Positions 16,851 to 58,484 of a stretch of 64,000 nt of DNA are shown here, in pieces. Each line of letters opens with the position of its first letter. Within the stretch, counting starts at the first letter, position 1. The stretch comes from a virus. Taxonomy: Duplodnaviria > Caudoviricetes. The translations under genes and the position numbers were made by a program. The notes beneath the pieces are model-generated. The model saw only the letters and a list, made by a program, of their open reading frames with translations, was not told where the DNA came from and did no database searches. The DNA lies in the IMG/VR virus record IMGVR_UViG_2974512537_000001, positions 17,077 through 81,076 of that record. One strand, written 5' to 3'.

Positions 16851-17154
16851 AAAACAGATTCGAGTAGATTTATATACTAAGAAAAACTGCGGTCAATGTC
16901 GAATGACAAAGAAACTTCTCGACCACTACGATATTGCTTACTTTGAAACCGACATTTCAGCCTTGTCAGAAGATGAAATTAACAACTTAAAGGACGAGGG
17001 ATTCTGGCAGGCTCCTATTGTTTCATTTCGTTATTTGGAAACTGGCAAGAGTGCTCGGTGGTCACAGACTGGTATGTGGGGAGGCTTCCAACCAGACGCA
17101 ATTAAAAAGTTAGCAGTCCTATATGGTACTAAACGTAATAAGGCGGTGGAATAA
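16837..17154 (+). CDS. nrdH: NrdH-like glutaredoxin
   Basis: LYTKKNCGQC, QAPIV, WGGFQPDAI. Confidence 0.85.
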   Translation: MEKNKKQIRVDLYTKKNCGQCRMTKKLLDHYDIAYFETDISALSEDEINNLKDEGFWQAPIVSFRYLETGKSARWSQTGMWGGFQPDAIKKLAVLYGTKRNKAVE

Positions 17155-29355: not shown

Positions 29356-29418
29356 TGTTTCTCACCATTCCTTTTTATTGTTTTTGATATGTACCCCACA
29401 CAATGTGTGGGTTGTTAA

Positions 29419-47914: not shown

Positions 47915-48136
47915 TTACCCCTCGGCAATGTTATCTTCTAACCAGTACCCTAAAGGAACTACCTCATCGTCAGAACCAGAACCATCGCTGTTGTCATCAA
48001 CAGATAGCATTTCTAGTAAATCAAAATAATTGGTTTCCTCTAGGTTGTTGAACGTGTCTTGCTTTTGAGCAACTAATGCTTTTTCAAGACGATTAATCTC
48101 GTCCAGCGTTTCCTGAAACGTCTGCGGTTCCGCTGG
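47915..48136 (-). CDS. tail assembly chaperone C-terminal extension (gpT-like), no own start
   Basis: TFNNLEETNYFDLLEML gpT-like motif; +1 frame overlapping the end of the chaperone gene; no SD-supported start. Confidence 0.6.
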   Translation of the reverse strand, partial: PAEPQTFQETLDEINRLEKALVAQKQDTFNNLEETNYFDLLEMLSVDDNSDGSGSDDEVVPLGYWLEDNIAEG

Positions 48137-48491
48137 GCGTACTGTCGTCTTCGTCACCGTCCACAATCTGGTCAATGTGCATAACCTTTTGAATGATTTG
48201 AGCGAACAACTCATCGGTCTTATCTGAATCCAAGTCTTCAAGTTTATCAATTTGTGATTCTGATAAACGCAACATGTCAGCAATATATTCGGTGGTTGCT
48301 TCGTTAGCTTCGTACTGGTTCTTTAAGAACGCACTGTAAGCTTCTTCATCGGTCATGTTTTCGGCGTCAATGTTACCTAACGCTTCTAACTTCATTTGCA
48401 CCTTTAACGTCTTTTTGATATTTTTGTTAGTTTCGTTTACTTCAACGGGCTTGCGAATACCTAAGTCTTTTGCATTGATTTTGACAGTCAT
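48093..48491 (-). CDS. tail assembly chaperone (gpG-like)
   Basis: Between MTP and TMP; GAGGAG SD before ATG 48491. Confidence 0.8.
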   Translation of the reverse strand: MTVKINAKDLGIRKPVEVNETNKNIKKTLKVQMKLEALGNIDAENMTDEEAYSAFLKNQYEANEATTEYIADMLRLSESQIDKLEDLDSDKTDELFAQIIQKVMHIDQIVDGDEDDSTPSGTADVSGNAGRD

Positions 48492-48620
48492 GTGAATCTC
48501 CTCGTCTTTCATCTAATATTTTATTTTTGGATATGTACACACACACCCCAGACGGGGCATGTAGGTGATTATTCAGCCTCAATTGTTACATTACTCACAC
48601 TAGGAGCAACCTGAGCTAAT

Positions 48621-49238
48621 TTAGGCTTGGCCGCCGCTACTCGCAACAGCATTACCCGGAAATACGAAGTTAGTCCAATCTTCAATTTTGAAAGTGTCCT
48701 TGGCTTCGTCACCTTTAGCATAAGCGGCCTTATCAGATTGACGGTTAACACCAGTAAACGTTAATGAGTCTGGTGCCAATTGTTCTGATTCGGTGTTCGT
48801 TTGCATGTTGTGTTCTTCCAGACCGAAAGTACCTTTCAATAAGGCGAAGTGTAACTTGTTGTTCAAACGGCCGTGGGTGATAAATTCAATAACTGAATAT
48901 GGCGCACGGGTGTCTGACGTAACAACAGAGAAACCTTTTTCATTGTCAACACCAGTAATAGCGTCAATGATGTCTTCTGGAATATCGTTAGCACCAACAG
49001 TTGCTTGAACAGACCCAACACCTTTACCAGACGTTTCAACGACCATGTCAGAACCGTAAATCTTAGTCATCGTTGGAGTAAGACCAGTAATATTACCGAC
49101 CGTCATACCTTGTGCGGTAGTTGAGTCTAACGTGTACACACCAGTCGTACCAATTGCCGTGTTTGTCGTATCAACTTGTTCCTTGTCTGTTTCAAAGATA
49201 GCAAGCCGAGCGCTATCAATACCTTTGGTTTTTGCCAT
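48621..49238 (-). CDS. major tail protein
   Basis: Position; ITGL.P, YS.IEF, FALLKG.F pattern of phi13-type MTPs. Confidence 0.85.
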   Translation of the reverse strand: MAKTKGIDSARLAIFETDKEQVDTTNTAIGTTGVYTLDSTTAQGMTVGNITGLTPTMTKIYGSDMVVETSGKGVGSVQATVGANDIPEDIIDAITGVDNEKGFSVVTSDTRAPYSVIEFITHGRLNNKLHFALLKGTFGLEEHNMQTNTESEQLAPDSLTFTGVNRQSDKAAYAKGDEAKDTFKIEDWTNFVFPGNAVASSGGQA

Positions 49239-50846: not shown

Positions 50847-51323
50847 TTATTGAGCTGGTTTTTGAGATGGAGCAACTGGAGTTCCTTTTGCTTCATCTGA
50901 TTTTTCAGAGTCGCCAGCGGCGTTTGTGCATACACCTTGCAGTGTATATTCAGTACCATTTGTTAAGCCGTCAACCGAGCCGGTTAATGACGTACCGAAA
51001 TCGGCAGTGCCGTTGTTCCCATCTGCTGTTTTCCAGTAAACAGTGCGCTTAGTGACCGCTGTACCGACATTCTGACCGTCAGAGAAGGTGACATCTAATT
51101 TACCATCACCAGCGCTAACCGCTAATGACGGCTTGCCGGGCACTTGGTTAGTGGTTGTAAAGTCACCAATCGTTGTCTTTGCACTTTCACCAGTATAGGC
51201 AATCTTATAACCAGAATACTTAGTGGCTGGAGTGAGTCCATTGATAGTAACTGGGGACGGTTGATTAGTTACAATCTTCTTATCCGTGTTGTCGTAAACA
51301 TCAAAATTCTTTGTCAAGGACAT
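50847..51323 (-). CDS. FN3-domain virion accessory protein (truncated FN3 + complete FN3)
   Basis: GLTPATKY and GLTNGTEY FN3 signatures; domain 1 starts at the strand-C equivalent. Confidence 0.75.
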   Translation of the reverse strand: MSLTKNFDVYDNTDKKIVTNQPSPVTINGLTPATKYSGYKIAYTGESAKTTIGDFTTTNQVPGKPSLAVSAGDGKLDVTFSDGQNVGTAVTKRTVYWKTADGNNGTADFGTSLTGSVDGLTNGTEYTLQGVCTNAAGDSEKSDEAKGTPVAPSQKPAQ

Positions 51324-51445
51324 TTCCTCCTTATCTTTGTAAATATGTACGCCCCCTCAAAAGAGGGGGTTGTTATCAAGTTTATTCGGCCGCAACTTTT
51401 ACGCTACTCACATCTGGAGTAACCTTAGTGACCTTTGGTGACGGA

Positions 51446-52735
51446 TTAATTACTCGCAGGCTTAGCAACCACGAATGCGTCAGGGTTGGTAACAGCACCG
51501 TCCATGTAGCCGTCAAGAACAACCAAATGACCACCAGCAAGCGCTTGTTGCGTATCAGCAGTAACGTGAGTTAAACGCAACCCTTGTTTAGTCATAATAG
51601 TGTAACCAGCGCTAAAGTTACCTAAAACGATTTGACCATCTGCGTTACCGTTCAATTGGTCAGATACGAACACAGGAATGCCTTGGAATGAGAATCCCGG
51701 CCGAACAGCCACAGCACCAGCAATAGTGTTTTGCATTTGTGGCTTGAAGATTAAGTGTTCGTTGTCATCATCTTTCATCTTTGATAAAGCGTTGAACACT
51801 TCACGAGATACAACAAATACGGCACGGTCTAAATATGCTGGATTAATTGAAGCTGTTAATTCAATCAATTCGTCCAACGTAGGAGTTGCACCGGCCAATT
51901 GAACAACTTGAACACCGTTATCTGCGGCAACAACTGGACGGAAAGTCTTTGAAGCGGCTTCTGGAGTCTTAGCACCAACTAATACGGCACGTTCGATAGC
52001 TTTAGCCAATGAACGACCTAAACGACCAACAGCGTAGCCAACAATGTCAGGAGCACCATCGTTAATCATCATGTTCGATAATTGCATTGAAGCACCGACA
52101 CGCTTTTGAGTTAATTCAACATACTTCAATGATGGAGTTTGTGCTTTTACTTCTTCAAGTTCACCAACGAAACCATCATCGGAAGTATCACTTTCACGGA
52201 CAACCCGTAAGTTACCAGTTACAGAACCAATCTTGTTTGACAATGCAAACACTGGTGAAGTTTCTTGTAACTTTTCAACAATGGTGTCAGCAACGGTCGT
52301 AGGAACGAGAACACCGCCGTTAGCTTTTTGACCATCAACGGCTTGTCCCCATGACAAACCATTGTCTGGTAATGCACGGTCTTCTACATCAAGACCTTCA
52401 TCATGTTCTTTTACGGCTTCAATATAGTCACGAACCGCTTTGCTACCTTGCATGTTGTCACGGAATAAATCTGCGGCCGCCCGCTTTTCAAGTTTCTTTA
52501 AATCTGCCATGTCTTTTTCAGCTCCTCGTGTATTATGTTGTGTAGGAATGGCGCTACTGCGTTGTTCATCTAAACTTGCGATTTCGTCATTGATAGAAAC
52601 AATATCTGACTTGATAGAACGCATTTCTTCTAATTGTTCGTCAGTAATAGTGCCATCTTCAATAACTGGTTTAAAGTCGTTCAGCTTGCTCTTTAAAGCC
52701 GAGCGCTTTTCCAAAAGACCTTTCTTTGTTTTCAC
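51446..52735 (-). CDS. major capsid protein, HK97 family
   Basis: Coiled-coil delta domain, GGVLVPTT, G.P.F, GNFS.GY, D...V..P.AF. Confidence 0.92.
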   Translation of the reverse strand: MKTKKGLLEKRSALKSKLNDFKPVIEDGTITDEQLEEMRSIKSDIVSINDEIASLDEQRSSAIPTQHNTRGAEKDMADLKKLEKRAAADLFRDNMQGSKAVRDYIEAVKEHDEGLDVEDRALPDNGLSWGQAVDGQKANGGVLVPTTVADTIVEKLQETSPVFALSNKIGSVTGNLRVVRESDTSDDGFVGELEEVKAQTPSLKYVELTQKRVGASMQLSNMMINDGAPDIVGYAVGRLGRSLAKAIERAVLVGAKTPEAASKTFRPVVAADNGVQVVQLAGATPTLDELIELTASINPAYLDRAVFVVSREVFNALSKMKDDDNEHLIFKPQMQNTIAGAVAVRPGFSFQGIPVFVSDQLNGNADGQIVLGNFSAGYTIMTKQGLRLTHVTADTQQALAGGHLVVLDGYMDGAVTNPDAFVVAKPASN

Positions 52736-57250: not shown

Positions 57251-57323
57251 AACTCCCAGCCAGACTCGAACTGGCATTGCAAGATTAGAAGTCTAGTGTG
57301 TTATCCGGTTACACCATGGGAGC
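57251..57323 (-). tRNA. tRNA-Arg(UCU)
   Basis: Cloverleaf GCTCCCA/TGGGAGT, loop CT-TCT-AA, TTCGAGT; CCA not encoded. Confidence 0.8.
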
Positions 57324-57324
57324 A

Positions 57325-57520
57325 TAGTCCTAGCTTGGGCCACACTGTTAGGAGGTGTGCTAGGTGCAATTATGTATGGGGTCGGATAAGTAGACGTCAC
57401 TTATCGGGACTGGCGGTCAGATACAAAGCCTCTGCCGAGCAATATGGTGACCCTCCAACCATATTAATGCAAAAGTGCTGTTTATAAGGCCCGTTTAGAA
57501 GACGCGAGCGCGTTTAACTT
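57325..57520 (-). ncRNA. structured non-coding segment
   Basis: Stems AATATGGT/ACCATATT, GATAAGT/ACTTATC, CCTAGC/GCTAGG, CACAC/GTGTG; no credible ORF. Confidence 0.5.
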
Positions 57521-57522
57521 AA

Positions 57523-57615
57523 CGTGATTGGTGTGGAATCGAACCACACGCGGTAGCTAACCTCCTGACACAGCCATTGCCTTATTCTAGGTCTTACTTG
57601 CCATGCTTCAACCAC
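57523..57615 (-). ncRNA. tRNA-like RNA B (non-canonical)
   Basis: 7-bp acceptor GTGGTTG/CAATCAC, 6-bp T stem with TTCGATT loop, no canonical D or anticodon arm. Confidence 0.55.
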
Positions 57616-57688
57616 ACGCCGACTTCCATTTTTAGTTTAATGGTAACTAACGTTTTTTGACGTACACGCCATCAGTCGCTCACTGTAA

Positions 57689-57795
57689 TGTGCTTGGTAG
57701 GGATTTGCACCCCACACAAGATATGAGTACCTTTCAATCACGTATGGCCTGAGAACCCCACACAATCTAGCGTCTACCTATTCCGCCACAAGCAC
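57689..57795 (-). ncRNA. tRNA-like RNA A (Leu-like D arm, branched anticodon region)
   Basis: GTGCTTG/CAAGCAC acceptor, GCGGAATAGGTAGACGC D arm, 6-bp T stem, about 50 nt in place of the anticodon arm. Confidence 0.6.
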
Positions 57796-57809
57796 TTTTT
57801 TACGTATTA

Positions 57810-58034
57810 TTAGTTATTTCTTGGTTCATTCATCATGACAGAACTTTTTAATTGAGAATCTAAACATGTGAGCAAAGCCATTGCCTTATCATATTCTTCC
57901 CATGATAATACACGAGCGTCTAATGATGAAACAACGCCTTCAAGCCTATCTAAAATATCTTGATTACGATAAACTTCTTCTCGTTCTGTTTTTAAATCAT
58001 TAACAACCTTTTCATTAGGTACTAATTCAGACAT
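57810..58034 (-). CDS. small helical protein inside the tRNA cluster
   Basis: AGGAGG SD; 74 aa. Confidence 0.6.
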   Translation of the reverse strand: MSELVPNEKVVNDLKTEREEVYRNQDILDRLEGVVSSLDARVLSWEEYDKAMALLTCLDSQLKSSVMMNEPRNN

Positions 58035-58063
58035 ATTATCATATCCTCCTACAACAACGGTTA

Positions 58064-58147
58064 TGGCTTTGGTAGGATTCGCGCCTACTCAGTCTTTCGA
58101 CAACGGTTTTACAGACCGCCACAGCTCTCTAACTCTGTCGCAAAGCC
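58064..58147 (-). tRNA. tRNA-Tyr(GUA)
   Basis: GGCTTTG/CAAAGCC, loop CT-GTA-AA, long variable arm; atypical T loop CGCGAAT. Confidence 0.8.
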
Positions 58148-58163
58148 ATTTTAAAGTAAACTA

Positions 58164-58238
58164 TTGCGAGTGGCAGGAGTCGAACCTGCTATTTAAAGGT
58201 TATGAACCTTTCGTGATTTTCCGTTTCACTCCACCGCA
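58164..58238 (-). tRNA. tRNA with CAU anticodon (Met or Ile2)
   Basis: AAAGG-TTCATAA-CCTTT arm, canonical T arm, acceptor stem with a one-nt bulge. Confidence 0.65.
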
Positions 58239-58239
58239 A

Positions 58240-58322
58240 TGCTCTAGGTAGGACTCGAACCTACACGTCTTACGACACAAGATTCTAAATCTTGCGTGCC
58301 TGCCAAATTACACCACTAGAGC
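58240..58322 (-). tRNA. tRNA-Leu(UAG)
   Basis: GCTCTAG/CTAGAGC, loop TT-TAG-AA, variable arm GTC-GTAA-GAC. Confidence 0.88.
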
Positions 58323-58328
58323 TTATTA

Positions 58329-58402
58329 TCGGGATAGCTGGATTTGAACCAACGACATCTCGGTTCCAAACCGAGTGAACTACCAAACTGTCCTATATCC
58401 CG
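58329..58402 (-). tRNA. tRNA-Pro(UGG)
   Basis: CGGGATA/TATCCCG, CTCGG-TTTGGAA-CCGAG, TTCAAAT. Confidence 0.9.
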
Positions 58403-58408
58403 TTAATA

Positions 58409-58480
58409 CTGCTCGGGCTGGAATCGAACCAGCGACCTCTTGATTAACAGTCAATTATTCTACCGCTGAACTACCGAGCA
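58409..58480 (-). tRNA. tRNA-Asn(GUU)
   Basis: TGCTCGG/CCGAGCA, loop CT-GTT-AA, TTCGATT. Confidence 0.88.
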
Positions 58481-58484
58481 ATGA

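Follow-up and report, generated by a model that had tools for sequence, protein, structure and literature searches.

A predicted +1 frameshift docking tag on the tail-tube protein of a Lactobacillus phage

Introduction

Minor, C-terminally extended forms of phage structural proteins are made by programmed ribosomal frameshifting in several systems. In the Listeria phages PSA, A118 and A500, both major structural genes yield a minor long form, Tsh-L (tail) and Cps-L (capsid), by recoding near the 3′ end, and the tail gene uses a +1 shift (PMC5009743). The extension is a long polypeptide, and the site is CCC_UGA, or CCC followed by a pseudoknot. In Bacillus phage SPP1 the tail-tube protein gp17.1 has a frameshift-made long form, gp17.1*, that puts a covalently fused, whole fibronectin type III (FN3) domain on the outside of the tube; the long form is a minority (about 3:1) and is dispensable (PMC8718954). 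Lactobacillus phage A2 is a siphophage in which both the major head and major tail proteins have extended forms (gp5A/B and gp10A/B; cited in PMC7260188 and PMC5009743), but A2 uses −1 shifts and its extension is described as Ig-like, that is, a whole domain (PMC5009743).

Two further systems are relevant as analogies. The yeast Ty3 element shifts +1 at GCG_AGU_U, producing Ala-Val when the A is skipped, without re-pairing of the peptidyl-tRNA in the +1 frame (PMC5009743). Ty3 depends on yeast-specific tRNA supply and a 3′ stimulator, and nothing comparable is known to have been shown in bacteria. In chaperone-usher pili, an incomplete Ig-like fold is completed by a strand supplied by another polypeptide.

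In the present study we analyzed a 64,000-nucleotide stretch (hereafter the window; positions 17,077 to 81,076 of IMG/VR record IMGVR_UViG_2974512537_000001) of an 81-kb virulent Lactiplantibacillus plantarum siphophage of the Tybeckvirinae. Our starting point was an original prediction, made from the sequence alone, that the major tail protein (MTP) gene carries behind its stop a hidden +1-frame peptide homologous to an extension of the major capsid protein (MCP), that the shift occurs at GCC-TAA, one base away from the CCC-TAA site of SPP1 and Listeria phages and therefore possibly weak, decayed or mechanistically different, that one ligand, probably the FN3 protein, decorates both head and tail, and that processed mRNAs would retain the tags. 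We found the observation to be correct, whereas the interpretation was supported only in part.

Results

Anatomy of the tail-tube and capsid tags

All genes of this region are on the minus strand, and the region is 97% identical to phages P1 and P2, 83% to ATCC 8014-B2 and Gut-P1, and 73% to Lenus, Nyseid and SA-C12. The relevant features are the following.

48621..49238 (−), MTP (tail tube) gene, 205 aa, zero frame, ending GGC CAA GCC TAA
48638..48644 (−), GCG AGT A, codons 199-200 of the MTP, the favoured +1 shift site (read GCG as Ala, skip A, read GTA as Val)
48620..48626 (−), GCC TAA A, the originally proposed shift site at the zero-frame stop, an alternative or ancestral site
48569..48640 (−), +1-frame tag of 23 sense codons (VAAAKPKLAQVAPSVSNVTIEAE) plus the TAA stop, the last 17 codons lying beyond the zero-frame stop
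48541..48562 (−), hairpin (ACAUGCCCC-GUCU-GGGGUGUGU) directly after the tag stop
48531..48538 (−), GTACATAT motif following the hairpin
51446..52735 (−), MCP gene, 429 aa, ending CCT GCG AGT AAT TAA
51382..51457 (−), MCP heptamer GCG AGT A (51457-51451) and its 23-codon +1 tag (VINPSPKVTKVTPDVSSVKVAAE) with stop
50847..51323 (−), FN3 protein, 158 aa; residues 1 to about 60 form a truncated FN3 'acceptor', predicted to lack strands A and B, and residues 71-146 form a complete FN3 domain
48131..48137 (−), CCC AGC G in tail chaperone G (48093-48512), the likely +1 site giving the G-T fusion; the T ORF runs to 47915 in the +1 frame
58329..58402 (−), phage tRNA-Pro (anticodon UGG), cognate for CCA, the codon reached by a +1 slip on CCC_A

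The MTP matched Pfam Phage_TTP_1 over residues 1-197 (E 2.9e-27; 95.7 bits against a curated cut-off of 22) and is 77-98% identical to the MTPs of phages P1, 8014-B2, Gut-P1, Lenus and SA-C12. The MCP matched Pfam Phage_capsid (E 5e-41). Behind the MTP stop the +1 frame reads ...AAAKPKLAQVAPSVSNVTIEAE and stops at 48571-48569, and behind the MCP the +1 frame reads NPSPKVTKVTPDVSSVKVAAE and stops at 51384-51382. The two 18-mers share 9 of 18 residues without gaps and at the same distance to the stop, as originally predicted. Among 49,560 stop-free 18-mers in all six frames of the window, the MTP peptide is the single best match to the MCP peptide; the next best has 8 identities, and four have 7. 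Of 1,999 stop-terminated 18-mers, only these two reach 6 or more identities. However, a profile built only from tags that are neither MTP tags nor from this window ranked the window's MTP tag 4th of 2,467 fragments, at E 2.3. The similarity within this one window is thus weak on its own, and the case rests on comparative data.

Both tags are followed by a hairpin and then GTACATAT, at 48531-48538 and 51343-51350. This motif has 6 matches in the window against 2.2 expected; five are on the minus (coding) strand, and the four that were inspected lie between genes. A hairpin sits at the same place in all relatives. Of the proposal that processed mRNAs retain the tags, only this hairpin-GTACATAT anatomy was confirmed.

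Conservation and coding constraint

In the window, P1, P2, 8014-B2, Gut-P1, Lenus, Nyseid, SA-C12 and the metagenomic contig L012, the +1 frame behind the MTP stop is open for the same 17 codons and reads K[LIV]..[VI].PS....[VA]TI[EV][AT]E, although the DNA has diverged to about 50-60% identity. The same holds for 21 codons behind the capsid stop. Across the three genera, pooled pN/pS is 0.39 in the tag frame (pS 0.64), against 1.14 and 1.41 in the other two frames. The tag frame has no stops in any relative, while the others have 0-4. Absence of constraint had been named in advance as grounds for rejecting the prediction, and constraint was found. The window's MTP tag is the most divergent one and differs from that of P1 at 3 of 17 residues; three of the four nucleotide changes between the two are non-synonymous.

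The tag frame overlaps the 3′ end of the MTP gene without a start codon of its own: the only upstream start is a GTG deep inside the MTP gene. Independent translation was rejected because there is no conserved start codon or ribosome-binding site, and a −1 frameshift was rejected because the −1 frame has stops.

Occurrence of the tag in other phages

Wider searches with MTP and MCP alignments returned mostly the same phages, whereas tblastn against phage records was more informative. The MTP of Staphylococcus phage 6ec ends ACT CCC TAA G, a textbook +1 site, and its +1 frame carries the same 17-residue peptide, reading KNVSVSARTDSAIVDAE. In Enterococcus phage IME196 (Efquatrovirus) the MCP and MTP both end CCC TAG T and carry nearly identical +1 tags, STPPVVGQVTPAETSA.IEL. 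In L. brevis phages JNU_P2 and 3-521 the tag is in frame at the C-terminus of FN3 proteins: the JNU_P2 FN3 protein and two 3-521 proteins end with it. Gp071 of the myophages Iacchus and Semele, which ends in the same Thr-rich tail as the 3-521 protein, needs a +1 shift after GCG AGC A to reach the tag. All 20 tags, from capsid, tube and accessory genes, align right-justified without gaps and stop at the same position. The more distant IMG/VR contigs L013/L014 have the tag on the capsid only, with a tube protein that ends in a Thr run, and two acceptor genes. We conclude that the tag is a real protein module. The Leuconostoc phage phiLM33_01, a distant relative without the tag, looks A2-like: −1 frame extensions with Ig-like (Big_2-type) sequence, judged by eye, follow both genes.

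A truncated FN3 domain as the predicted acceptor

Residues 10-46 of the FN3 protein encoded next to the capsid gene match Pfam fn3 positions 36-72 of 84 (E 0.024), so about 26 N-terminal positions are missing; the first 60 or so residues match only the C-terminal two-thirds of FN3-like profiles. When tag and acceptor were joined, the fn3 match did not extend onto the tag (15.0 against 15.3 bits). Homologues of the acceptor occur alone, as a 66-aa protein after the IME196 capsid gene, whose homologue in phage vB_EfaS-271 was detected by mass spectrometry with 94% coverage (PMC7503890); duplicated in L013; fused to collagen-like repeats in 6ec gp46 (E 6e-7); and fused to Thr-rich repeats in Iacchus.

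In 8014-B2, L013 and a further locus labelled L016, the capsid tag, the intergenic spacer and the acceptor gene happen to lie in one frame. We therefore translated the natural DNA with stops read as Gly, and two such read-through chains were modelled by AlphaFold. In the 8014-B2 chain the tag forms strands at residues 7-13 and 18-23, with pLDDT 97 over residues 11-20, and the spacer is disordered. The model superposes on solved FN3-FN3 tandems over residues 1-198, with 170-180 of about 177 ordered residues aligned (Z 13-14), which places the capsid tag as strands A and B of a predicted seven-strand FN3 sandwich. The divergent L013 pair behaves the same way (strands 11-17 and 22-27, pLDDT 86 and 79). 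These are predictions that used capsid tags joined to the acceptor in a single chain, since no natural DNA places the MTP tag and the acceptor in one frame, and they lack a negative-control peptide, although AlphaFold may pack any beta-prone peptide into an open sandwich.

Tag and acceptor co-occur in the six tag-bearing lineages examined. 6ec carries the tag only on its MTP and has an acceptor domain in gp46. The tag-less relatives VPE25, phiLM33_01 and Ldl1 have no acceptor anywhere in their genomes. In Iacchus the tag ends eight codons before the acceptor's start codon, in the same frame, which looks like a domain cut in two. LpeD, on the other hand, has an acceptor but no tag on the upstream gene.

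Candidate shift sites

GCC_TAA is probably not the working site. The link to CCC_TAA is real in one sense, as the homologous position is CCC TAA G in 6ec and CCC TAG T in IME196, but the window itself has GCC TAA A and no CCC codon before the stop. A better candidate is GCG_AGT_A at 48644-48638, six codons upstream, which would give a 23-codon extension rather than 17 and replace the last six zero-frame residues. In-frame GCG_AGT_A occurs only twice in about 18,200 codons of the window, at codon 199 of 206 of the MTP gene and codon 427 of 430 of the MCP gene, with about 0.8 expected anywhere. The MCP heptamer is kept in L013/L014 and in JNU_P2. GCG_AGY_A precedes +1 tags in four further gene contexts (L013, JNU_P2, Iacchus and Semele), whereas the codon before the stop varies among AAT, AAG, GTC, AAA and GGC, and in those genes the distance to the stop also varies. 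The in-frame JNU_P2 copy has GCA instead.

In the two sister genera the MTP carries CCC AGY at this position. ACG CCC AGY is invariant in the overlap of the tail chaperone G and T ORFs, which are in the +1 arrangement in all nine phages compared, and in 8014-B2 the 12-mer CCC AGC GGA ACC is identical at both sites. CCC is rare here (1.9 per 1000), and a role of the phage tRNA-Pro(UGG) in frameshifting may be inferred. Homology between the MTP and MCP tags (PAPK against PAPT) begins upstream of the MTP stop, which also favours the upstream site.

Several findings weaken this assignment. GCG_AGY_A has no described bacterial precedent, and the peptidyl-tRNA cannot re-pair in the +1 frame. AGT and AGC are not rare codons in this phage (14.5 and 11.4 per 1000), and Lpa804 has GTG, not GCG, before AGC A. 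The consensus fold of the MTP 3′ ends gave only small hairpins and no conserved stimulatory structure (covariation term −0.47), and the conserved hairpin lies 60-85 nt downstream of either candidate site, too far to act as a frameshift stimulator. The resemblance to Ty3, which shares the first six letters and the Ala-Val outcome, is a mechanistic analogy and not a claim of membership. We consider GCG_AGT_A somewhat more likely than not, GCC_TAA unlikely, and both or another site possible for the remainder. Either site would give a 222-aa long form (MTP-L) containing LAQVAPSVSNVTIEAE; the two versions would differ in six residues at the junction, with the tryptic peptide IEDWTNFVFPGNAVAVAAAK from GCG_AGT_A and IEDWTNFVFPGNAVASSGGQAK from GCC_TAA.

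Discussion

In the explanation that we favour, with a probability of roughly 0.6, a minority of ribosomes translating the tail-tube mRNA shift +1 near its 3′ end, most likely at GCG_AGT_A, to make MTP-L, and the capsid gene does the same at an identical heptamer. The tag would be a flexible linker plus two short beta-strands corresponding to strands A and B of an FN3 domain, and would complete in trans the FN3 domain of the 158-aa protein that lacks exactly those strands. This donor-strand or split-domain 'plug and socket' would tether the FN3 protein to a fraction of tube and capsid subunits, and its second, complete FN3 domain would point outward, as Ig-like decorations on other phages do. 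The anatomy, the conservation, the coding constraint, the in-frame homologues and the co-occurrence of tag and acceptor are shown by our data, whereas it is inferred that the shift happens and where, that the MTP tag binds like the modelled capsid tag, what the stoichiometry is, and what the displayed domain does. That MTP-L is made and selected for appears likely; that it docks the FN3 protein by strand complementation is more likely than not. Literature searches on frameshifting or proteomics in 8014-B2, P1/P2, Lenus/Nyseid, SA-C12 and Efquatrovirus found no report of a long MTP or MCP form and no proteomic data for this phage group; MTP-L and its binding to the FN3 protein are inferred from sequence and fold prediction. 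With respect to the original prediction, the homology, the constraint and, by inference from fold predictions and co-occurrence, the shared ligand hold up, but the proposed shift site probably does not.

The same product could arise by a shift at the stop codon, with peptidyl-tRNA-Ala on GCC, the slowly decoded UAA in the A site and tRNA-Lys reading AAA in the +1 frame, giving the junction ...SSGGQA-KLAQ.... GCC TAA R is invariant in eight phages, the first +1 codon is always Lys, and stop codons are strong +1 stimulators (PMC5009743). Yet GCC can re-pair with CCU at only two of three positions, and the invariance is also explained by dual coding, Pro-Lys in the tag frame and a stop in the zero frame. 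Among capsid genes that carry the tag, the codon before the stop is not conserved (AAT, AAG, GTC), whereas GCG AGT A is. We regard this alternative as unlikely.

It is also unlikely, though not excluded, that the tag is translated but works without the FN3 protein, for example as a beta-strand arm cementing neighbouring subunits in both lattices, or as an assembly or regulatory signal. The tag is short and beta-prone, C-terminal arms of tube proteins make inter-ring contacts in SPP1 (PMC8718954), LpeD has an acceptor without an adjacent tag, and the fold predictions concern capsid tags rather than the MTP tag. The joint presence in six lineages and joint absence in three, the in-frame tags at the ends of acceptor-bearing proteins, the arrangement in Iacchus and the fold predictions argue against it. 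Least likely is that the stretch is not translated, being a conserved RNA or DNA element, part of the hairpin-UACAUA processing or terminator unit, or a decaying relic of an old extension. It does lie just upstream of a conserved hairpin, and the changes between the window and P1 are mostly non-synonymous, but the DNA is poorly conserved while the peptide, its frame and its length are kept, pN/pS is below 1 only in the tag frame, no conserved structure was found, and in-frame protein homologues exist.

Compared with the Listeria phages, relatives such as 6ec and IME196 use the same kind of site, CCC followed by a stop, but the extension here is only 17-23 residues, predicted to be the first two strands of a domain whose remainder is a separate gene product, and the likely shift sites in this phage are non-canonical. 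In SPP1 the whole FN3 domain is fused to the tube protein; here only the docking strands would be fused, the FN3 protein would be recruited non-covalently, and the same tag is on the capsid. In contrast to chaperone-usher pili, two strands rather than one would be donated, from a C-terminus, to an FN3 fold, with no chaperone or usher and no sequence relationship; the in-frame tags on acceptor-bearing proteins of JNU_P2 and 3-521 would allow head-to-tail chains. We found no description of such an arrangement in the literature searched.

More tentatively, phages of lactobacilli, enterococci and staphylococci may share a modular display system, in which a 17-23-residue tag is appended to a tunable fraction of capsid, tube or other virion proteins by +1 frameshifting, or fused in frame, and captures any protein that begins with the strand-deficient FN3 socket. 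In Lactobacillus phages the recoding would use a previously undescribed bacterial class of +1 sites, [GCG/CCC]_AGY, which resembles Ty3 and in this one late operon would serve three genes: capsid, tube and tail chaperone G/T.

In the known frameshift-made long forms of capsid and tail proteins the extension is itself the displayed domain, whereas here it appears to be only a docking peptide for a separately encoded protein. This would be a new way for a virus to set the copy number of a decoration, through shift efficiency; the same decoration could go on two unrelated lattices; and cargo could be swapped, because sockets are fused to FN3, collagen-like or Thr-rich modules in different phages. 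It also predicts unannotated protein forms in many Lactobacillus, Enterococcus and Staphylococcus phage genomes, some of them therapy candidates, and offers a natural small tag-and-catcher pair for phage display. If confirmed, GCG_AGY_A and CCC_AGY would widen the known repertoire of bacterial +1 recoding signals.

Putative recoding signals and RNA elements in the window

The tail assembly chaperone ORFs G and T overlap in the +1 frame rather than in the usual -1 arrangement. The sequence ACG CCC AGY is invariant in the overlap in the window, in seven relatives and in the IMG/VR contig L013, where the overlap is only 56 nt, and this points to a +1 G-T frameshift at CCC_AGY. The window features concerned are:

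47915-48512, minus strand, overlapping chaperone ORFs G and T
48131-48137, minus strand, heptamer in the G/T overlap
57251-58481, minus strand, cluster of phage tRNA genes

The tRNA cluster comprises Arg(TCT), Leu(TAG), Pro(TGG) and Asn(GTT). Of these, Pro(TGG) could favour the CCC-to-CCA slip, while Asn(GTT) reads the first +1 codon after the capsid stop. In addition, the motif GTACATAT occurs five times on the coding strand, at positions 29387, 42146, 48531, 51343 and 58714 (all minus strand), with 6 matches in total against 2.2 expected. The four copies that were checked lie between genes. Those after the MCP and MTP tags directly follow a hairpin, and relatives keep a hairpin plus [GA]TACATA[TA] at the same places.

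Tags, acceptors and other extensions in other phages

In Enterococcus phage IME196 (NC_028990; L027 119-1701 and L032 514-1080 in the loci examined), the capsid and tube genes both end CCC TAG T and are followed by near-identical +1 tags, which are also almost identical at the DNA level. The 66-aa protein annotated as ‘major tail protein’ after the capsid gene is only the strand-deficient FN3 socket. In Staphylococcus phage 6ec, the annotated ‘hydrolase domain protein’ gp46 (locus L031, 2886-3461) begins with the acceptor half-domain (E 6e-7) and continues with collagen-like G-x-x repeats, and is the likely partner of the 6ec tube tag.

Long -1-frame extensions follow both the capsid and tube genes in Leuconostoc phage phiLM33_01 (locus L024, 5706 and 6666), one of which is annotated as a separate small ORF. 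By eye, their sequence looks like Big_2-type Ig-like domains. In VPE25 (locus L023, 5688), a -1-frame Thr-rich extension follows the capsid gene. Proteins of about 295-320 aa with similar N-terminal sequence, as judged by eye, lie next to acceptor genes in two unrelated phages, namely L013 (1952-2920) and Iacchus (gp073; locus L033, 3398-4285), and a Pfam scan of the L013 protein returned no match. Thr-rich tails on the neighbouring proteins, and on the L013 and VPE25 tube proteins, could be glycosylation targets. Finally, proteins of JNU_P2 (locus L028, 4001-4504) and 3-521 (locus L029, 3467-4495) carry both the socket at the N-terminus and the tag in frame at the C-terminus, and could polymerise head to tail by strand donation.
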